From an uncultured Ignavibacteriales bacterium (GTDB taxonomy: Bacteria > Zixibacteria > MSB-5A5 > GN15 > JAAZOE01): a stretch of DNA of 37,807 bases. A program made the position numbers and the translations under genes. Of the stretch, positions 27,255 through 37,807 are shown in pieces. The notes below the pieces were generated by a model. It was not told the origin of the DNA and did not search any database. It saw nothing but the letters and a program-made list of their open reading frames with translations. Every line of letters begins with the position of its first letter. The stretch's first letter is position 1. The stretch lies in assembly GCA_964611355.1 (NCBI GenBank), contig CAZSYD010000021.1, positions 1-37,807 on the forward strand, in the 5' to 3' direction.

Positions 27255-27875
27255 TTATTTATCCTCTTTGAGTCGGCTCAACCTTTTAATATACGGGTCT
27301 GTTTTATATCCTTCGAGTTTCAAAAAGTATATCAACGAGGCGGCCAGGTGTTGATACATCCTGTCATTCTTGCTTTCCGCCGAATTCAGAATGTCATCAA
27401 GGCAGGTTAAAAGGTGGCCTCGCTCAGTCAGGAGTATGTTCATTTCTTCCGATTCTCGCCGCAACAGGGAGTAAAAGCGATCGGCCAGGGAAGCTTGCTC
27501 TCCGGATGACTTGAAGATCAATTTTAGTGAGCCGGTTCCCAGCCTTTGCGCCCATTCCCTGATTTCTTCGGCCAGCTTGAAATGGTCCGTATCGTGGCGG
27601 TTAACCAGCTCCTGATTCAGGCTGTTAAGGAAAACACCGAGCCGCTTTCGCTGAGAACTGTCCAGATTCCCATCTTCCGGCCAAGCGCGATACCGGCTCA
27701 GGAATCGGGTAAGATCATCGATAACAGGTTGACCCTCACGCAAACTGATGAGGATATCGTCAAGCTGGTTAAGGCCGATCAGGAAATCGATCTGCGATTC
27801 CTTTTTGGCCAGCATACCTCCTATTAGATGTGCTAACCGGTCTTCAAGCCGATTTATGGTTTCGGTCTTTATCAT
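27255..27875 (-). CDS. Hypothetical all-alpha protein
   Basis: 206-aa ORF, ATGA-coupled to the DUF4388 gene. Confidence 0.8.
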   Translation of the reverse strand: MIKTETINRLEDRLAHLIGGMLAKKESQIDFLIGLNQLDDILISLREGQPVIDDLTRFLSRYRAWPEDGNLDSSQRKRLGVFLNSLNQELVNRHDTDHFKLAEEIREWAQRLGTGSLKLIFKSSGEQASLADRFYSLLRRESEEMNILLTERGHLLTCLDDILNSAESKNDRMYQHLAASLIYFLKLEGYKTDPYIKRLSRLKEDK

Positions 27876-28720
27876 TGATCGCCTGCGGGTCCCGCGGCAT
27901 CGGGCATTGCCTGGCCGATTTTTTGCGTAAGGTAGTCTTCAATCAGCTGGCCGAGCCGATCCACCATCGCCTCCAGTCGATCATTTCCTGAATCGCCTTT
28001 TTCGACCGGTATGATCAGTCCGGCCAATTGCAAAGAAGCCAGTTTCTTAAGCGTTTCAATCGATTCCAGGGGAGAGGCTTCAAGTATATCGTTGATATCG
28101 CGGTGGCCATCCACCAGAGCCAGAATGTTCCACTCCTCCGGTTCGAGCAAAATATCTCTTTTTTGGCCGGATTCCGAGAGCGCCAGGCCATAAGTGGTCG
28201 AAAAATCGGGCATGTGATCTTTCAGGCGGGATATTTCGTCCAGCCGGCGCAGGCCTTCCAGGACGACATTTTCGGTCGAAATGTTTACAGTGATTTCCTC
28301 TTCGGTGGGAAACTGGTCTTCATAAAACTTAAACGAGCCGTGGTCCCATGACATTAGCGAATAGATCAGTTCTTCGACCTGTTTTCGTATAACCTCTTCG
28401 AGGTCGGCCCGGTCAATATATCGCTTTTCGATCAGAACCTGTCCCAGCCGCCTGCCCGATGAGACATGGCGGGCCTGCTCGGCGATCACCTCGTCGAGTT
28501 GCTCGGGGGTGATTCGGTTTTTTTCCACCAACATGCGACCGACATGATAGGTTTTTCGAGGCCCGTAACCGTAAATAACCGAGCCGTTTTTAAAATAAAC
28601 CATAACGATGTCGTCGTCGCGCTGGATGCCCAGCGTGCCGGTTTTCCGGCTGGTCGAAACCAACTGGAAAATCTCAGGCAGCGTAAACCGTTCTATATTG
28701 CCCTGAAGATCCAAATCCAT
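27872..28720 (-). CDS. DUF4388 (PATAN-like) protein with MshEN-like insert
   Basis: LQG.I..F.LP.IFQL....RKTG.L; G.ML....IT.EQL...Q and RLGQVL....I....L.....Q; W..G.F.F; LEGLRRLDE; start ATG 28720. Confidence 0.88.
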   Translation of the reverse strand: MDLDLQGNIERFTLPEIFQLVSTSRKTGTLGIQRDDDIVMVYFKNGSVIYGYGPRKTYHVGRMLVEKNRITPEQLDEVIAEQARHVSSGRRLGQVLIEKRYIDRADLEEVIRKQVEELIYSLMSWDHGSFKFYEDQFPTEEEITVNISTENVVLEGLRRLDEISRLKDHMPDFSTTYGLALSESGQKRDILLEPEEWNILALVDGHRDINDILEASPLESIETLKKLASLQLAGLIIPVEKGDSGNDRLEAMVDRLGQLIEDYLTQKIGQAMPDAAGPAGDQ

Positions 28721-28752
28721 TATCTTTTTCCGCCTTTTTCTGACAAACCTAA

Positions 28753-28780
28753 AATATATCCATTTCTTAAGGATTGTCAA
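28753..28780 (-). promoter_or_regulatory. sigma70-type promoter of the minus-strand operon
   Basis: Minus-strand TTGACA, 16-nt spacer, TATATT. Confidence 0.5.
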
Positions 28781-28991
28781 TTTATATTAATGGCGCGCGG
28801 GCAATCCCTAATGGATTCGCTTAACTTAATCTGAGTAATGGCTGAAAAGCGTTTTTTGAATAGTGAAACATATTAGTAAAACAACATTTGCGTTAATAAT
28901 TCAGTTTCTCTATATTTCCGATAAGCCTTTGAATCGGCTTTCATCGGGCAGAACCATTATAGGGCGCAACCGCAATTATGGAGAAGCCAAA

Positions 28992-30317
28992 ATGACATTC
29001 GGATCGGTAGAAGCAGATGCTTTTTGCGATAGCAAGGCCGGATTCAGGCTGTCGCTGTTTGCCGTTGCGTTGATAATGTTTATTATTTGCGGGCATGCAC
29101 CGGTATCGGCCGAAGGCATCGCACGGATAAAAGTCGATATGGCCATCGGCCCGATAGCCGTCAAGGTTATCACTCGGGCGGTTGACCGGGCCTTTGAAGA
29201 AAACCGAGAACTTCTTATTATCGAGCTCGATACTCCCGGCGGGCTGGATCAATCAATGCGGATTATTTGCCGTAAGTTGCTTAATGCCGATTTGCCGGTG
29301 GTGGTTTATGTTTCTCCCTCTGGAGCGAGGGCGGCCTCGGCAGGGCTGTTTATCACTTACTCCGCCAATATTGCGGCCATGGCCCCGGGGACCAATATCG
29401 GCGCGGCTCATGTGGTTAGTATGGGCGCCAAGATCGATTCGGTCATGTCCGAAAAGGTACAAAATGACGCCGTCGCCTATATTACCTCCATTGCCAAGAA
29501 AAGGGATCGTAATTTTGAATGGGCCAAACTGGCGATATTGGAGAGCGCATCCATCGATGCCGAAGCGGCGCTCGATTCCAACGTTATCGATATTCTTGCC
29601 AAAGATATTGAAGACCTGCTGTCCCAGGTTGACGGCCGGGTAGTGGAGCTTCCTATCGGGCCGGATACAATCACTATCGCCGACAGGGAAGTCGAGGAAT
29701 ACGCTATAAGTTTCAAGGACCGTTTTCTCAAGGTTATTACTGATCCGACGATTGCTTTTATCCTGTTCAATATCGGCTGGCTGGGTTTGATGGTCGAGTT
29801 ATATAATCCGGGGGCGGTACTGCCCGGTGTGGTGGGTGGTATTTGCCTGATTATGGCTTTCTTTGCCTTTCAGCAGCTCCCGATAAATTACGCCGGTCTG
29901 GGTCTTATAATCTTTGCCATAATACTTTTTATCCTGGAAGTGAAGATTGTAAGTCATGGAATCTTATCGATTGGAGGGATTGTATCTATGCTTATGGGAT
30001 CGCTGCTTTTAATTGATTCTCCGGCTCCTTACCTCCAGATTTCATTGGTGGTCATAATCACTACGGTAATTATTATTTCGGCTTTTTTCCTTTTTGTCGT
30101 CGGTTTTGCCATCAGAGCTCACCGGCGTAAGGTGACCACCGGACATGAAGGGATGATCGGCGCTGTCGGCGAGGTTCGCGGCGACGGGATGGTCTTTGCC
30201 GAAGGCGAATTGTGGCGGGCTGATTGTGACGAACCGCTTAAACAGGGAGATAAGGTTCGAATCTTGGCGGTTGATAAAATGCGCCTAAAAGTAGAAAAAA
30301 TCGGAGGTGACAAATGA
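28992..30317 (+). CDS. nfeD: NfeD long form (ClpP-like serine protease, TM bundle, OB fold)
   Basis: [31 protein letters not shown] bundle, GELWRA; likely start 28992 or slightly downstream. Confidence 0.93.
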
Positions 30318-31075
30318 ACATTTTCAGTTCGGGTGTTCTCACTATCATCTTTTTTGCTGTTCTGATTCTGGCCTATGCCATACGTATCCTGCGGGAATAC
30401 GAGCGCGGCGTTATCTTTCGTCTTGGCCGCCTTGTCGGCGCCAAGGGACCGGGGTTGATTCTGCTTATCCCCATCATTGATAAAATGGTCAAGGTTTCCC
30501 TGCGGGTGGTTACCATGGACGTGCCGGAACAGGATGTCATCACGCGTGACAACGTTACCGTCCGCGTCAATGCCGTGGTCTATTTCCGCGTAGTAGACCC
30601 GGAAAAGGCAATCGTAGCCGTGGAAGACTATCTGTATGCCACCTCGATGGTTTCTCAGACAACCCTGCGATCTGTTCTGGGCCAGGCGGAACTGGACAGT
30701 CTCCTCGCCGAACGGGATAAGCTCAACGATCAGCTTCAGAAAATAATCGACGAGGATACCGAGCCGTGGGGCATCAAGGTTACCAAGGTGGAAGTTAAAA
30801 ACGTGGATCTGCCCCAGGAAATGCAGCGGGCTATCGCCAAGCAGGCCGAGGCCGAACGTGAACGGCGCGCCAAGGTTATCCATGCCGAGGGTGAACTGCA
30901 AGCAGCCGGAAAACTTCTTATGGCGGCCCAGGAGATATCCAAGGATAGCACCGCTATTCAACTACGATTCCTGCAAACGTTAACCGAAGTGGCGGCCGAA
31001 AAAAATTCGACACTGATCTTTCCGGTACCGATTGATCTTTTCACGCCGTTTATTGAGAAACATTCGAGAGGTTAA
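30314..31075 (+). CDS. SPFH/stomatin (slipin) family protein
   Basis: [47 protein letters not shown]; coupled to nfeD. Confidence 0.95.
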
Positions 31076-31240: not shown

Positions 31241-32611
31241 ATGAAGCAGAGAATAATCGAACTCGATATAGTCGATCTGGCCTATAACGGGCAGGCGATA
31301 GGATATGACAATGGCAAAGTAACGTTTGTCAATGGCGGACTTCCGGGAGAACGGGTCAGGGCGGAAATCGTCAAATCAAAGAAGCGTCATAACCAGGCCC
31401 GGCTTGTGAGGATTCTGTCCAAATCTCCGGAACGGATTGATCCGGCCTGTCGCCATTACGATATCTGCGGCGGTTGCATATGGCAGGACCTCGATTACGA
31501 AAGACAACTCTATTACAAAAGAAATCAGATCATCGCCAGCCTGGAACATATCGGTAAATTTAAGGACGTCGAAGTCGGGGATGTGCGCCGATCGCCGGAT
31601 ATTTTCTTCTACCGCAACAAGATGGAATTCTCGTTCAATGTCTGTTCGCCGGAAGAAGCCGGGCGGGGGTTTGTTCTCGGCCTGCATGAACAGGGTCGTT
31701 TTGACCGAATCTTCGACGTTGTCGAGTGCCGCCTGCAATCGGAGTTTTCGAATCAACTGGTTGTTTTTCTCCGTGAAAAGGTGGCCGAACTCGGCATCCC
31801 GATCTATGATTTGACGGCGCATCACGGGTTTTTGCGTTTCGCCGTCGTACGCGAGGGGAAAAACAGTGGGCAGATAATGCTGGCGCTGGTTTCGGGCGGA
31901 GGAGAATTTGTCGCCAAGGATCAGCTTGTCTCGGCCCTGATCGAGGCATTTCCCAAGCTTACAACAATTGTCTGGGTGATGAACGATAAGATGACCAATA
32001 TCGCCCGGGGCGAGGTTTGCGAAATCCTTCATGGTCCCGGTTATATTGAAGAAGAGATACTCGGCTTGCGATTCCGAATCAGCGTCGGTTCGTTTTTTCA
32101 GACAAACAGCCGTCAGAGCGAAGCGCTGTATCGGAGGGCTATTGAACTTGCTGAAATTGAAAGAAGCGACAACCTGCTTGATCTTTATTGCGGGGCCGGC
32201 ACGATCGGTTTGTGCGCCGCGTCAAAAGCCGGACGGGTGATTGGCATTGATATCGAAAAAGAAGCGGTTGATGCGGCAAAGATAAATGCCGAAATAAACG
32301 GCGTTGAAAACAGCCGCTTTTTCGCCGGGCCGATTCGCACGGCGCTGGCTTCGGATGATCTGCGGGGGATACGATTTGACGTGGTCATCAACGACCCGCC
32401 GCGCGCCGGTATGCATCCGAAGGCGATAAAACGCCTGCTGGAGATTAACGCCGGGCGGTTGATATATATATCCTGCAATCCGGCCACATTCGCTCGCGAC
32501 GCGGCTATCTTGTGCGAGGCCGGATATAATCTTTGCGAGATAATACCTTTCGATATGTTTCCCCACACTATGCATATCGAATTGGTTTCACGATTCGAAA
32601 AAAGTGATTGA
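31241..32611 (+). CDS. rlmD: 23S rRNA m5U1939 methyltransferase (RlmD/RlmCD)
   Basis: TRAM domain, CRHYDICGGC, YRNKMEF, SFFQTN, DLYCGAGTIG, DPPRAG, YISCNP, DMFPHT.HIE. Confidence 0.95.
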   Translation: MKQRIIELDIVDLAYNGQAIGYDNGKVTFVNGGLPGERVRAEIVKSKKRHNQARLVRILSKSPERIDPACRHYDICGGCIWQDLDYERQLYYKRNQIIASLEHIGKFKDVEVGDVRRSPDIFFYRNKMEFSFNVCSPEEAGRGFVLGLHEQGRFDRIFDVVECRLQSEFSNQLVVFLREKVAELGIPIYDLTAHHGFLRFAVVREGKNSGQIMLALVSGGGEFVAKDQLVSALIEAFPKLTTIVWVMNDKMTNIARGEVCEILHGPGYIEEEILGLRFRISVGSFFQTNSRQSEALYRRAIELAEIERSDNLLDLYCGAGTIGLCAASKAGRVIGIDIEKEAVDAAKINAEINGVENSRFFAGPIRTALASDDLRGIRFDVVINDPPRAGMHPKAIKRLLEINAGRLIYISCNPATFARDAAILCEAGYNLCEIIPFDMFPHTMHIELVSRFEKSD

Positions 32612-32660
32612 TCGCTTTTAAGCATAAAGATATTATCTTTATAAATTGGATTGGCGAATT

Positions 32661-33788
32661 ATGCCTGAATGTAAGCCTTTAACATTTATCCATGCGGCCG
32701 ATTTTCATCTCGGCGCTGACCTGAAAAGACTCGGCCCGGCGGCGGAAAAGCTGCGTCAGGCACAATTTGACGCCCTGTACCGAACGCTTGCCTGTGCCGC
32801 TGAAAAAGAAGCGGCTTTTGTCGTTATTTGCGGCGACCTCTTCGACAACCGATTTCCGGCCGAAAAGGTAATTAAGCAAACACGAGAGACTTTTGCCGAA
32901 TTTGCATCAGTTAAGGTTTTCGTTATCCCGGGAACGCATGATTTTTTGAGCCGTGATTCGATTCTGAGTTCGGAGAAAGCCGGATGGGCAGGCAAAAACG
33001 TTATTTTTTTAAACCGGTCTGTCGAGTCACCGCTTCACCTTCCAGATTTTAACTGCTATCTCTATTTTACTATAAATCGTTCTAATCGCTCGGCGTTTTC
33101 GCCGATTGAGGGATTTGCCCGGGAATGTCGGGAAGGATATCATATCGGTCTGGCTCACGGTTCACTCCGGATTGGAGGGCTTAACCTGTCATATGATTTT
33201 CCTATGGAACCAAAGGAAATCGAGGCAAGCGGTCTTGATTATTTGGCCCTGGGTCACTGGCATAAGGCAAGAGTAGAAAAATATGGCCGGACGACGGTCG
33301 CTTATTCCGGCATACCTCAGCCGCTTTCCTTTTCCGACCCGGAAGAAGGTTCAGCGCTTATTGTCACCATTGAATATTCCGGTCTGGTAAGCATGGAGAA
33401 GATAATAACATCCATGGTTGTCTTTAGGAAAATTTCCGAGGTAATTTATCATCCTCATCAATTGACCCAGGTTCTTGATAACGAGGCCGATACCAATAAG
33501 ATAATAAAGCTTGACCTGCGATTTTCCGATAATCTTAAAGAATATCATGAAATTGACAGGATAATCAAAAATTCTGCGTCGAGGTTTCTTTCAGTGAGCA
33601 CTGACGACTGGAAAGAGAAAAATGCATCCCCGGAGCCTGAAGATATTAACCTGGGGGGAAACAGCCTCCTGATTGCCGGATATCTTGAAGAGATAGACAG
33701 GCTGAAAGATAACGAAAGCCCGGAACGCGCTGATCTTTATGAAAAGGCGGCCAATTTGGGGGTTTGCATTATCAGGGGAGAGGTTTGA
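32661..33788 (+). CDS. Mre11/SbcD/YhaO-like metallophosphoesterase (DNA repair exonuclease family)
   Basis: HAADFHLG, GDLFD, PGTHD, AHG, DYLALGHWH, YSG.P. Confidence 0.9.
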   Translation: MPECKPLTFIHAADFHLGADLKRLGPAAEKLRQAQFDALYRTLACAAEKEAAFVVICGDLFDNRFPAEKVIKQTRETFAEFASVKVFVIPGTHDFLSRDSILSSEKAGWAGKNVIFLNRSVESPLHLPDFNCYLYFTINRSNRSAFSPIEGFARECREGYHIGLAHGSLRIGGLNLSYDFPMEPKEIEASGLDYLALGHWHKARVEKYGRTTVAYSGIPQPLSFSDPEEGSALIVTIEYSGLVSMEKIITSMVVFRKISEVIYHPHQLTQVLDNEADTNKIIKLDLRFSDNLKEYHEIDRIIKNSASRFLSVSTDDWKEKNASPEPEDINLGGNSLLIAGYLEEIDRLKDNESPERADLYEKAANLGVCIIRGEV

Positions 33789-35908
33789 TGCGCCGTCAGG
33801 TTGTGCTCAATTCTCTTCGGATGGAAAATTTCGGCTGCTTCCGCGATCGGACAGTCACTTTCGAGCCGGAACTCAATCAGCTCATCGGTCCCAATGAAAG
33901 CGGCAAGTCAACCGTTCTCAGGGGATTGTTGACTGCTGTCTTCGAGGATGGAACTACCCGGAAGAAAAATATCAGTCAACTACGAAACTGGAACCAAAAA
34001 AGTCCTTTCAAGCTGACCTTGAAGTTTTCCGTTGGCGATAAGGAATTTACTTTGATCAGGGATCACGGTACCGGCCGCGACATTATGACCGACTCCGACG
34101 GAATAACCTATGAGGGGAGAACAATCGGGGAAAACCTCGGTATTTACTTCGGCACTCCCGATCGGAATCTTTTTGAATCGGTTTTTTGCTTTTCATCGGA
34201 TGACCCCGCCTCCCTTGAGAAACAAAAGAGCAGGCTCAAATCAGCCCTGGAGACGCCGGTTTTTTCCGGTTTTGACCGTACCAAAGCCGACGACTATCTT
34301 GAGGAAGAAATCAAAAAAATCGATAATCCCCGGGCGCACGGACCGCGAAAACTCGACCTGCTCGACGAACAGATTCAAAGCTACCTGCAGCAGAAATCAG
34401 AGCTTGACCGACGGATGGAGGCTCTGGCCAAAGATAAAGCGGAGCTTGATACGGTTCGGGAAAATATCAAGCAGCATGAAGACGATTTGTCGCGATTGGA
34501 AAGACTCGTTATCGGTGGTGAAGCGTACCGGACGTTGGATACCCGGATGGCCGGTCTGGATGAGCGTCTCCAGACTCACCTGGCCAACTACTCCCGGGCG
34601 CAGCAGGCGGCTGAGGATTTGGAGAGAGTAGGCAAGGAGTTGGCCGGTATCACGGTTCCCGAACCCGGCGAAATCAAGGAGATTGAAACCAGGCGGAATG
34701 AACTGGTCCAGACTGTCGATCAGGCCAAGCGCGGAATGGATGAGTTGATCGTTCGGCGCGTCCGGGCCAAGCGCGACTTCATGGCGGTAACGCTGCTTTT
34801 GGTTTTCCTCTGCCTCGTGTATGTTATCCAGCAGATGGGGTATTACGACACCGGTCCGGTGGCCGATATCACTCCCTATACTATTCCCGTGATGACGCTA
34901 ATCTGGGTAGTGGGCATGTCCGCGTACCTGTCCTGTTTCCGCAGAAAGAAAAAGGCGACGACGATTTTCCGGGGAAAAGTGGCCGAAATGGACGGGTTCT
35001 ATGCCGAGTTGAATGATCGGTGTAACCTCAAAGCTGCCGATCCGATAAAAGCCATTCACGAACAAATAACGCGTCGGCAAACGCTTGGATTGAGCGCCGA
35101 GAACCTGGCCGGAAGAGTTGATCTTCTCTCCGACGGCAAAGGACTGGAACATCTTGCCGAAGTCAAGTGGCAACTGGAAGCGGAAGTGGCGCAGATTAAC
35201 AAGGAGTTTGCACCCCTGGTGGAGTTTGCCTCCGTGGCAGGGCAAGTGGCCGAATTAAAAGAGGAATTGACGGCCAAGCGGGTCCGATGTAATGCTTTTC
35301 GTGAAAGGGCGGCTTTGCTTACGGAAAGATGCTCGGCGATTGAACCGTTAAAAAACAGTTTTACCAAAGTAGAAAATGAACTGGAAGCGCTTAAGCGCGA
35401 GTACAAGGAAATCGTCGAAAGGCTGGAAATACTGAGGATTACCCGCGCGGCCCTGAACCGCGCCGCTGATCAATTGATTGAACAAACATTTGCCGCATAC
35501 AGCGATGAAGCTTCAACCTATCTGGCTGATTTGACCGACAGACGCTACGAAGAACTCCGCTTCTCAAAAGAGATCGACGCTTTTGAACTGAAGGTTAATA
35601 ATACCGATAACTGGTACGGGGTTGGCGAATATCTTTCATCATCCACTCGCGATGTCGTTTACATGGCTCTTCATCTGGCGGCGATGGATCGGCTGTCAGG
35701 CGATTATGCCGTGCCGGTGATATTTGATCAGGCCGGCGCAAGGATGGACGAAAACAGGCGGCGAAACTTTTTTGACCTGCTTTCCCGCCTGGCCTCCCGG
35801 CGGCAGGTTGTTTATGCCGCTGTCGGAAAAGGGAATCTTCAGGGCGAATCACATATCATAGAATTTGATTTAGAGGCTTCCGAGGTAACACGGGAGCAAA
35901 CCGTCTAA
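33788..35908 (+). CDS. Rad50/SbcC/YhaN-like coiled-coil ATPase with two central TM helices
   Basis: NFG.F, GPNESGKST, long coiled coils, degenerate C-terminal ABC motifs; TGATG-coupled to the previous gene. Confidence 0.88.
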   Translation: MRRQVVLNSLRMENFGCFRDRTVTFEPELNQLIGPNESGKSTVLRGLLTAVFEDGTTRKKNISQLRNWNQKSPFKLTLKFSVGDKEFTLIRDHGTGRDIMTDSDGITYEGRTIGENLGIYFGTPDRNLFESVFCFSSDDPASLEKQKSRLKSALETPVFSGFDRTKADDYLEEEIKKIDNPRAHGPRKLDLLDEQIQSYLQQKSELDRRMEALAKDKAELDTVRENIKQHEDDLSRLERLVIGGEAYRTLDTRMAGLDERLQTHLANYSRAQQAAEDLERVGKELAGITVPEPGEIKEIETRRNELVQTVDQAKRGMDELIVRRVRAKRDFMAVTLLLVFLCLVYVIQQMGYYDTGPVADITPYTIPVMTLIWVVGMSAYLSCFRRKKKATTIFRGKVAEMDGFYAELNDRCNLKAADPIKAIHEQITRRQTLGLSAENLAGRVDLLSDGKGLEHLAEVKWQLEAEVAQINKEFAPLVEFASVAGQVAELKEELTAKRVRCNAFRERAALLTERCSAIEPLKNSFTKVENELEALKREYKEIVERLEILRITRAALNRAADQLIEQTFAAYSDEASTYLADLTDRRYEELRFSKEIDAFELKVNNTDNWYGVGEYLSSSTRDVVYMALHLAAMDRLSGDYAVPVIFDQAGARMDENRRRNFFDLLSRLASRRQVVYAAVGKGNLQGESHIIEFDLEASEVTREQTV

Positions 35909-35958
35909 GAATAAAAATTCCCTTTATTTTCCCAGGCCAATCATTATATTTCATTTAT

Positions 35959-36450
35959 ATGGCAGACATGATGATCTGGGCCCCGTGGCGGTCGGAATTT
36001 ATTCTGGGTGAAAAAGAAAAGGGTTGTATCTTTTGCAGGTTGGCCGGGGAGAAAAGGAAAAATCATAAAAACCTGATATTATATCGTACCGAAAAGTCAT
36101 ACATCGTCCTGAACAAGTATCCGTACAATGCCGGGCATCTTCTTATCGTTCCCAATCGCCATATCGGGGCGCTGGAGCGGCTGACCGGGGTCGAATCGAT
36201 GGAACTGATTCAACTCAGCCAGATGGCGGTTAAAGTTATGAAATCGTGTCTCAAGCCGAATGCTTTCAACCTGGGGATGAATCTGGGTCGTCCCGCCGGC
36301 GCCGGGGTGGCGGGCCATCTCCATATGCATATCGTACCCCGCTGGACAGGCGATGCCAACTTCATGGCCGTGGTGGGCAAAACAAGAGTGCATTCGATTC
36401 CGATGAAATCGATTTACGACAAACTGGTCGAGGGGTTTGCCGAATTATGA
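35959..36450 (+). CDS. HIT family nucleotide hydrolase/phosphorylase (Ap4A phosphorylase-like)
   Basis: WAPWR, CIFC, LNKYPYN.GH, FNLGMNLG..AGAG, HLHMHIVPRW.GD.NF. Confidence 0.93.
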   Translation: MADMMIWAPWRSEFILGEKEKGCIFCRLAGEKRKNHKNLILYRTEKSYIVLNKYPYNAGHLLIVPNRHIGALERLTGVESMELIQLSQMAVKVMKSCLKPNAFNLGMNLGRPAGAGVAGHLHMHIVPRWTGDANFMAVVGKTRVHSIPMKSIYDKLVEGFAEL

Positions 36451-37807
36451 GTCCCCGACGGATACCAACCAGGGGGGAACTGCTCAGGCTCCAGAAACTG
36501 TACCGCACCGATAAGAAAATCGCCGAATTTATCGGTAACGGTGTTACCGAGCACCTGGTTTCTTATTGGCGCAGAAAAAAAGGGATTGATCAGTATTCCT
36601 TTCCCAAGTTTTCCGAGAAGGAGATTAGCGAAGTCTGGGATCGCTTTGGCGACGATTTCCATGCCGGTATGGAACTGGGTATCTCGAAGGCCGCTTTTTA
36701 TAATTGGCGGCGAAGATATAAAATCACCAAAAAGCCGGAAGCGCTGAAACTCGAACAACTGTCGCTTCAACTCTATACCGATGATAAAAGAGACCACCGA
36801 CGGATCGGAACCGGTCGGCAGACTATCCTTCAAAAAAGCCTTTCGCATAAGACAAGCGAAAAAGATATTCCGCCGGGGAAGAAGATAGAGTTTGAACCTG
36901 ACGTTACTTTGTCGGCAGGCACGGCGGGCGAGGTGCTTTATCATTTTCAGGTGTCGGGCATTAAATTCGTGAAAAATCCCGGCCGGATTATCATTGCTCT
37001 GGATGGAGCTTCCCCGGATGATTCCGCTGACATGGCTTCGCGCCTGAAATCGGTTCGTGATTTTGCCCGCCTGCAACAGATAAGAAATTTCTTTGACATC
37101 GGCGAGGGCGACGGTTTGCAACTCGCGCTCGAAAAGGGACTGATACTGCCGGGTCAGATCGTAGCGGGCAGTGACCGGTACAACGCCTCGTGCGGCTGTT
37201 TGGGAGCGATCAATTTTTCCGTCAGCGTCGAAGAGATGGCCGCCGTCTGGGCGGAAAATAAGTTTACCTTGACGATACCGGAAACGACGCGGATAAACAT
37301 CACCGGCCGGACGCCGCGCGGAGTATTTACGCGCGACGTAATTTACCAGGTTATCGCGCGGGTGGCGTCTAAGGGAATCGAAGGCAAGCAGGTTGAGTTT
37401 TATGGAAGCGCCGTCGATCAGATGTCGATTTCGGAAAGGTTTACCCTCTGCCGCGTGATTATGACTACCGGAGCCGCCGGTGCGGTCTGCCCGTTCGATG
37501 CTACTACCCGGCGATACGTCAATCTTCGCGCCCGTCGTCCTTTCACTCCGATATTGGCCGACCGCAATGCCGTCTATGCCGGTGAATATACTTTCGATGT
37601 CAACACCATGAAGCCGGTCGCCGCCCGCCGCGGCGGGCCGGAACGTATTGAAGATATTACGGCGATTGATGAGCTGTCGGACTTGCCGATTCGGCAGGTT
37701 TTTCTGGGCGGAGCCGCCAACGGTCGTTTTGACGATCTCAGGATCGCCGCCGAGATATTAAAAGGCAAAGTAATCAATCCTGATACAAGACTCATAATTC
37801 AACCGGC
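36447..37807 (+). CDS. Tandem-HTH protein fused to a degenerate LeuC/aconitase large-subunit domain (truncated by window end)
   Basis: Not in the ORF track because it has no stop in the window. Manual translation from ATG 36447 is open for 453 codons and shows two HTH-like repeats, then GRQTILQK, LILPGQ, IPET..I...G, VEFYG, SERFTLC, AD..A.Y, QVFLGGAANGR.DDLR.AA.IL.G. Confidence 0.88.
   Translation, partial: MSPRRIPTRGELLRLQKLYRTDKKIAEFIGNGVTEHLVSYWRRKKGIDQYSFPKFSEKEISEVWDRFGDDFHAGMELGISKAAFYNWRRRYKITKKPEALKLEQLSLQLYTDDKRDHRRIGTGRQTILQKSLSHKTSEKDIPPGKKIEFEPDVTLSAGTAGEVLYHFQVSGIKFVKNPGRIIIALDGASPDDSADMASRLKSVRDFARLQQIRNFFDIGEGDGLQLALEKGLILPGQIVAGSDRYNASCGCLGAINFSVSVEEMAAVWAENKFTLTIPETTRINITGRTPRGVFTRDVIYQVIARVASKGIEGKQVEFYGSAVDQMSISERFTLCRVIMTTGAAGAVCPFDATTRRYVNLRARRPFTPILADRNAVYAGEYTFDVNTMKPVAARRGGPERIEDITAIDELSDLPIRQVFLGGAANGRFDDLRIAAEILKGKVINPDTRLIIQP

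Follow-up and report, generated by a model that had tools for sequence, protein, structure and literature searches.

IRP1 and IRP2, together with the bacterial apo-aconitases (AcnA, AcnB, and CitB), are proteins of the aconitase superfamily that are used for regulation and not for catalysis, and IRP2 is a pseudoenzyme without an iron-sulfur cluster. A number of DNA-binding regulators are likewise derived from enzymes, including PutA, BirA, and NadR as well as the aminotransferase-like MocR/GabR, the sugar-kinase-like ROK, and the PRT-like PurR proteins. A DNA-binding head carried on an enzyme-derived body is the architecture of known effector-binding regulators. Here, we describe a gene from an uncultured bacterium assigned to the Zixibacteria (GenBank assembly GCA_964611355.1, contig CAZSYD010000021.1), in which a head of two helix-turn-helix (HTH) units precedes the large-subunit fold of the LeuC/HacA aconitase family. 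The window analyzed is the whole stretch of 37,807 nucleotides (nt), which is the entire contig of the assembly (1-37807). The fusion is a near-universal, single-copy gene of the Zixibacteria that combines a double HTH-fold head, a LeuC fold, and operon coupling to a HIT-family gene. On balance, its product appears to be a nucleic-acid-binding protein, probably a DNA-binding one, whose dead enzyme body acts as a scaffold that may hold the HIT partner.

The fusion gene comprises the following features, given with their positions in the window and in the protein in amino acids (aa):

36447-37805, plus strand: fusion open reading frame (ORF), open from an ATG start to the end of the window, 453 codons.
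36447..36596, plus strand: HTH unit 1 (aa 1-50), with helices at 9-19, 22-29, and 35-44, the third of which has a basic end.
36597..36731, plus strand: HTH unit 2 (aa 51-95), with helices at 57-67, 70-77, and 81-90.
36732..36821, plus strand: linker (aa 96-125), a conserved starting helix followed by a variable, low-confidence tether.
36822..37805, plus strand: LeuC/HacA-type aconitase large-subunit body (aa 126-453), delimited by profiles and the structure model and ending at the contig end.
37173..37184, plus strand: DRYN in place of the catalytic DSHT (aa 243-246), from alignment to the MJ0499 motifs and the family table.
37707..37727, plus strand: GGAANGR in place of GSCTNGR (aa 421-427), with alanine at the first [4Fe-4S] cysteine ligand.

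The contig end cuts the ORF, leaving 453 of about 541 aa (approximately the first 84%). Because the window is the whole contig, the fusion gene was cut by the assembly and is not broken. The homolog P0002, which is 541 aa long and 92% identical, served as the full-length reference for the window protein; judged from it, about 88 C-terminal residues are absent. Two HTH-like repeats had been placed in the first ~95 aa by a preliminary description of this DNA made from the letters alone, and both are present in the ORF translation.

The gene is conserved throughout the phylum. A search of 5.8 billion proteins gave 647 matches, the best 120 of which are 44-92% identical to the window protein. All but one of these 120 homologs cover at least 97% of the query with lengths of 524-547 aa, the exception being a 381-aa fragment, and the organism is Zixibacteria wherever the source of a homolog names one. 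The head (aa 1-110) was matched at E ≤ 1e-10 in 265 of the 285 genomes of the phylum, with one match per genome; the same holds for 194 of the 198 high-quality genomes and for 126 of the 130 genera. With one genome taken per GTDB species, 143 loci encode a relative, and 80 of these loci were kept for analysis. The ratio of nonsynonymous to synonymous substitution rates (dN/dS), calculated by the Nei-Gojobori method for 14 locus pairs (75-96% identity), ranges from 0 to 0.05 in the head and from 0.05 to 0.16 in the body, and the three pairs with unsaturated dS (0.2-0.4) give body values of 0.086-0.128. The suggestion that this is a maintained gene with dN/dS < 1 is thus borne out by the phylum-wide orthologs and by purifying selection. 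Both dN/dS and column entropy identify the head as the most conserved part of the protein, with an entropy of 0.71 bits in HTH unit 1 and 0.70 bits in unit 2 compared to 1.84 bits in the body.

The body retains the three-domain alpha/beta fold of its enzyme relatives. Pfam Aconitase (PF00330) matches aa 203-453 with an E value of 9.4e-38 (130.8 bits against a cut-off of 28.7), and the NCBIfam LeuC/HacA models (NF001614/TIGR01343) align aa 125-453 with profile positions 1-328 of 415, in agreement with the early assignment of the remainder of the protein to the LeuC/HacA scaffold. The score of the contig-cut window protein against these NCBIfam models is 232.6 for a cut-off of 385, which the full-length ortholog P0045 passes with 505.6 bits. 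A full-length model of P0002, built from a 118-sequence alignment, has a predicted local distance difference test (pLDDT) score of 89 and a predicted template modeling score (pTM) of 0.77; pLDDT falls below 50 at residues 102-118, a low-confidence linker that tethers the head. Foldseek aligns this model to the structure 4kp1 with an E value of 5e-43, a target-normalized TM-score of 0.88, and a root-mean-square deviation (rmsd) of 2.7 Å. The body as such superposes on 4kp1, 4kp2, and 4nqy with target-normalized TM-scores of 0.88-0.90 and rmsd values of 2.6-2.8 Å at ~31% identity.

The active site, in turn, has been replaced in the window lineage. With the motifs of M. jannaschii MJ0499 as the canonical set, both the window protein and P0002 carry AG for HD, DG for DH, GLQ for CHQ, DRYN for DSHT, R..T for N..E, and GGAANGR for GSCTNGR. 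All of the catalytic and substrate motifs tested (HD, DH, CHQ, DSH, N..E, and NRNFxGR) are replaced in P0001 and P0002. The motif numbering is anchored on the invariant columns P235, G236, G250, G421, G426, and D430, and the motif changes listed in the preliminary description, including their placement at aa 243-246 and 421-427, hold against the MJ0499 motifs. The other two cysteine ligands of the window protein fall past the contig end. P0002 lacks cysteine beyond residue 348, also at or near these two ligand positions, so the other two cluster ligands are absent too. The claim that the catalytic and iron-sulfur residues are gone is therefore true of the window lineage, while two aconitase-family paralogs in the same genome (ORFs of 642 and 657 aa) keep every motif.

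Across the family, the loss of the active site is recurrent and incomplete. We compared 165 unique full-length orthologs, a set restricted to lengths of 500-620 aa and to sequences with the N-terminal motif, which leaves out the truncated window protein. The catalytic and ligand columns have an entropy of 3.0-3.6 bits, making this the least conserved region of the protein, and 130-150 motif variants occur among the 165 sequences. Of these orthologs, 85 have none of the three cysteine ligands, 54 have a partial set, and 26 have all three; DSH is kept in 4, and the complete or incomplete state of the triad changes at least seven times on a FastTree phylogeny. Since HTH-headed orthologs with an intact site exist, the HTH fusion predates the catalytic loss. 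The ortholog sequences indicate that the fusion arose on a working enzyme and that the site has been lost many times since, with the head, the fold, and the length being kept. The idea that fusion and catalytic loss occur together fits the window protein itself, but it does not hold strictly across the family, given the 26 fusions with all three cysteines and the 4 with DSH.

The head was modeled separately with AlphaFold2 (aa 1-115, 67-sequence alignment), giving a mean pLDDT of 87.9 and ~95 over aa 11-90. The model consists of two three-helix units and a further helix spanning residues 98-113. Modeling of the N-terminus as HTH, which the preliminary description had named as a check, thus yields two three-helix HTH units at a pLDDT of ~95. 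The linker helix is also a family feature, as K96, P97, and L100-L105 are nearly invariant in the alignment columns. When the head was compared to 48,161 chains with VIA-align, HTH unit 1 matched the DNA-binding domain of GcrA (Z 5.9, rmsd 2.7 over 46 residues) and a complex of a mycobacteriophage immunity repressor with DNA (Z 5.8). Single head units matched Tn3 resolvase (Z 5.0) and domains of SETMAR, Mos1, Myb, Fis, and NtrC (Z 4-5).

Sequence relatives of the head are found outside the fusion as well. An exhaustive phmmer search of the head against 1.84 billion representative sequences gave 96 matches, and those that are not fusions are proteins of 3-7 tandem units of ~50 aa plus a few short two-unit proteins. 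The head unit is homologous to these repeat-array proteins with E values down to 2e-24, and the arrays in turn match HTH_23 at E values of 1e-18 to 1e-45. The proteins P0147, P0152, P0160, P0161, P0164, and P0169 are 270-720 aa long and are made up almost entirely of 4-7 or more tandem units of the head type. Among the orthologs of the fusion, P0003 exceeds the HTH_23 cut-off (25.9 vs. 24.6 bits). The head is strongly basic, with an isoelectric point (pI) of 10 (10.4 for unit 1). For the homolog P0102, a precomputed Pfam list gives PF28406.1 beside Aconitase; PF28406 is absent from the Pfam copy used here, and the N-terminal head may already be a defined domain in a recent Pfam release.

The other consistent attribute of the fusion gene is its upstream neighbor, which encodes a HIT-family protein. 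The features of this part of the operon are as follows:

35945..35950, plus strand: -10-like box TATATT, 8 nt before the HIT start codon.
35959..36450, plus strand: HIT-family gene (163 aa), Ap4A-phosphorylase/ATP-adenylyltransferase-like, with HxHxH kept.
36447..36450, plus strand: ATGA overlap of the HIT stop codon and the fusion start codon, a sign of translational coupling.

The HIT product matches Pfam HIT (PF01230) with an E value of 7.2e-17. Among NCBIfam models, it comes closest to the actinobacterial ATP adenylyltransferase NF052622 (E 3.8e-44), against which it scores 150 bits for a cut-off of 290. A recognizable fusion ORF is present in 74 of the 80 loci, and 73 of these have at least 520 nt of upstream sequence. 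In all 73, a HIT homolog lies directly upstream on the same strand and abuts or overlaps the fusion, and the HIT triad (H120, H122, and H124) is invariant in 74 sequences. The genes downstream of the fusion and upstream of the HIT gene vary between loci.

The start of the operon is conserved as well. In 71 of 74 loci, the HIT start codon is preceded by a TAnnnT hexamer whose end lies 5-11 nt (mode 8) ahead of it, compared to 12 of 74 in a control window, and a core resembling a Shine-Dalgarno sequence was found before the HIT start in none of the 74. Because the -10-like box is conserved and the Shine-Dalgarno core is missing, we read the HIT-fusion mRNA as leaderless, and these start regions, at 35909-35958 in the window and at the matching position in L005-L084, suggest that the operon is leaderless throughout the phylum. 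A -35 element of the TTGGCA or TTTG type is visible by eye before the HIT gene in several clades; a simple sigma-70 scan flagged no promoter before the HIT gene in the window. Inspection by eye of the region upstream of the HIT gene revealed no conserved operator separable from the -35- and -10-like promoter boxes.

These observations may be combined into a tentative mechanism. The basic head would bind nucleic acid, most likely a conserved DNA target, which would give the fusion protein the role of a transcription factor or of a protein associated with the chromosome. Selection would retain the dead body as a folded scaffold for oligomerization or partner docking, with the co-translated HIT enzyme as the obvious candidate partner; metabolite sensing through the ancestral active site is probably not the reason for its retention. 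A bolder version, which we regard as an outside chance, is a single machine tethered to DNA and composed of the HIT enzyme and the dead LeuC with its double HTH: the body would dock the HIT enzyme, and the head would bring it to DNA or to promoters. If true, the turnover of dinucleoside polyphosphates, a related nucleotide signal, or caps would be coupled to gene expression phylum-wide, and the family would capture in living lineages every stage from an active iron-sulfur enzyme to a pure scaffold.

Several observations weigh against a DNA-binding protein with a scaffold body. The window protein has weak Pfam matches to HTH_23, HTH_Tnp_1, and HTH_28 at aa 76-100, all below cut-off, with HTH_23 scoring 16.7 bits for a cut-off of 24.6. 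The VIA-align Z-scores of the head (maximum 5.9) are middling and may reflect a common helical arrangement only. Foldseek found no match of the head model in the PDB at E ≤ 0.001, the weak top rows being Mos1, tandem engrailed, SETMAR, POU, and DUX4 (E ≥ 0.1), and a head profile run against PDB sequences gave chance-level matches only (adenosine deaminase at E 9e-4, a designed repeat protein, and Cro at E 0.78). A physical complex of the HIT enzyme and the fusion protein is inferred only from gene order. As for the body, P0103 and P0063 keep nearly every canonical motif, a LeuD-like ORF lies directly downstream of the fusion in 3 of the 74 loci (L019, L020, and L063), and enzyme activity may persist in parts of the family. 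Lastly, the residues that the family conserves and that are changed in both same-genome paralogs include R355, R356, and R469 (98-100%); these arginines could form a new ligand site, which would favor a sensor.

Such a sensor is the best surviving alternative, albeit an unlikely one. In this view, a small-molecule ligand of the dead body (a tricarboxylate or nucleotide, for instance, or a compound that the HIT enzyme consumes or makes) would switch the HTH head. The resemblance to known effector-binding regulators, the purifying selection on the body, and a nucleotide-handling HIT enzyme as operon partner are all consistent with this, and the three family-conserved arginines could line a new anion site. 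However, the ancestral substrate and cluster columns, the most variable of the protein, are incompatible with a single conserved pocket. Since these positions drift, the ancestral pocket is unlikely to sense a ligand; a remodeled site is possible. The preliminary description had proposed a metabolite-sensing regulator; of this proposal, the HTH head joined to a pseudoenzyme stands, and the metabolite sensing does not agree with a pocket whose ancestral positions vary the most.

Somewhat less likely again is that DNA is not the target of the head, which would instead contact RNA or a protein (RNA polymerase or a sigma factor, for example), with the fusion protein acting after or alongside transcription. 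Three-helix units occur in such contexts, and the VIA-align list for the head also holds sigma-54, domains resembling sigma region 4, and spliceosomal Myb-like repeats. Its top row, GcrA, contacts both DNA and sigma-70. The aconitase family itself offers a precedent in IRP1, whose entries 3snp and 3sn2 are among the structural matches. On the other hand, the head unit has its closest sequence relatives in proteins that match HTH_23 and related DNA-binding families, the head is strongly basic, and domain 4, which forms half of the RNA cleft of IRP1, is absent. The analogy with IRP1 drawn in the preliminary description is accordingly weak, since the fusion has neither domain 4 nor a LeuD part.

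It is very improbable that the protein of the window genome is still an enzyme of the trigger type, combining DNA binding with hydro-lyase activity of altered chemistry. The family does descend from LeuC/HacA enzymes, some orthologs keep the full motif set or adjoin a LeuD-like gene, and P0045 passes the NCBIfam cut-off. By contrast, the motifs tested in the window protein are all replaced, its first cysteine ligand is alanine, and P0002 is without cysteine at or near the other two ligand positions. The window genome, 96% complete, yielded no stand-alone LeuD; all of its matches to PF00694 and TIGR02087 fall within the two fused paralogs of 642 and 657 aa. The region downstream of the fusion gene is unassembled in the window contig. 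Elsewhere, a LeuD-like ORF occurs within 8 kb of the fusion in about 10 of the 74 loci, and LeuD was rejected as a regular partner since it is directly downstream in three loci only:

L019, 9735-10235: LeuD/HacB-type small-subunit gene directly after the fusion.
L020, 9839-10324: LeuD/HacB-type small-subunit gene directly after the fusion.
L063, 9721-10134: LeuD/HacB-type small-subunit gene directly after the fusion.

The LeuD/HacB genes of L019 and L020 match TIGR02087 above cut-off. The L020 fusion has all three cysteines and has lost DSH; the L019 fusion keeps DSH and has one cysteine only. In these three loci, the pair of large and small subunits may still work or may have recently stopped working. 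None of five Zixibacteria genomes, the window genome among them, gave a match to the LeuA_dimer domain (PF08502), which was found in all 14 control genomes. On the basis of this one Pfam family in five genomes, a role of the fusion in the leucine pathway is unlikely; the canonical leucine pathway may be missing from these five genomes, or they may have a synthase without LeuA_dimer.

The remaining explanation, a decaying paralog or an assembly artefact without function, is suggested by the incomplete frame and the lost catalytic residues and is refuted by the cut at the contig end, the full-length homologs, the presence of orthologs in 265 of 285 phylum genomes, a dN/dS far below 1, and a fold predicted at a pLDDT of 89, leaving it a negligible chance.

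Other genes in the window lie upstream of the HIT gene. Directly upstream on the plus strand are genes for an SbcD-like metallophosphoesterase (32646-33788) and a 714-aa SbcC/SMC-like ATPase with AAA_23 and SMC_N domains (33764-35908). An ATPase of ~700 aa is likewise placed in the closest loci (L007, L012, and L013) and not in more distant ones. Further upstream are a gene for a DUF4388 protein (27872-28780, minus strand), an NfeD/SPFH (Band 7) pair (28863-31075), and a gene for a TRAM-domain RNA uracil-5 methyltransferase (31241-32611).

In comparison with known systems, the closest relatives of the body are the archaeal LeuC/HacA proteins (MJ0499 and MJ1003; 4kp1, 4nqy, and 4kp2), which share its sequence family and fold; the ortholog P0045, for example, matches 4kp1 with an E value of 1e-113 (phmmer). 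The window protein differs from them by the addition of ~125 N-terminal aa that make up the double HTH and the linker. Moreover, the window lineage is without the iron-sulfur cysteine ligands and the tested catalytic motifs, its genome is without a stand-alone small subunit, and the constant neighbor of the fusion gene is a HIT gene rather than a gene of the leu or lys pathways. The P0002 model also matches IRP1 (3snp and 2b3x) and IRP2 (6vcd) with E values of 1e-13 to 1e-21 (Foldseek). However, IRP1-type proteins bind RNA between domains 1-3 and domain 4, whereas the window protein carries an HTH head instead; neither domain 4 nor Aconitase_C was found in the fusion family, which ends with the large subunit at ~540 aa.

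For the head, the nearest parallels are bipartite or tandem HTH domains, such as those of Mos1/SETMAR, the R2R3 repeats of Myb, and double homeodomains, which likewise consist of two consecutive three-helix units, and a single unit can be likened to the DNA-binding domain of GcrA. In contrast to these domains, the head as a whole has no significant global match, and its sequence homology extends only to uncharacterized repeat proteins. The general design, a DNA-binding domain joined to an enzyme or ex-enzyme body, is that of the enzyme-derived regulators, and by analogy the window protein plausibly works alike. The two differ in the pocket, which in those regulators is conserved and binds an effector and in the fusion family is the most variable part.

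In public databases, the family is named isopropylmalate dehydratase, homoaconitase, or 'aconitase family protein.' This enzyme label is wrong for the window lineage and would mislead metabolic reconstructions of Zixibacteria. The preliminary description knew of no HTH-LeuC fusion, and no description of an aconitase/LeuC-HTH fusion, nor of any enzyme-derived regulator with an aconitase fold, was found by us in the open-access literature or bioRxiv, as judged by titles and the beginnings of abstracts. The gene is among the few near-universal, single-copy, phylum-specific genes with a recognizable nucleic-acid-binding head, and its product probably has a central, unstudied function, to which the invariable pairing with a HIT gene provides a concrete and testable lead. 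As its orthologs range from intact to fully stripped, the family is a natural series from iron-sulfur enzyme to pseudoenzyme in which the fold stays under selection. The fusion would be the first aconitase-fold body found behind a DNA-binding domain.

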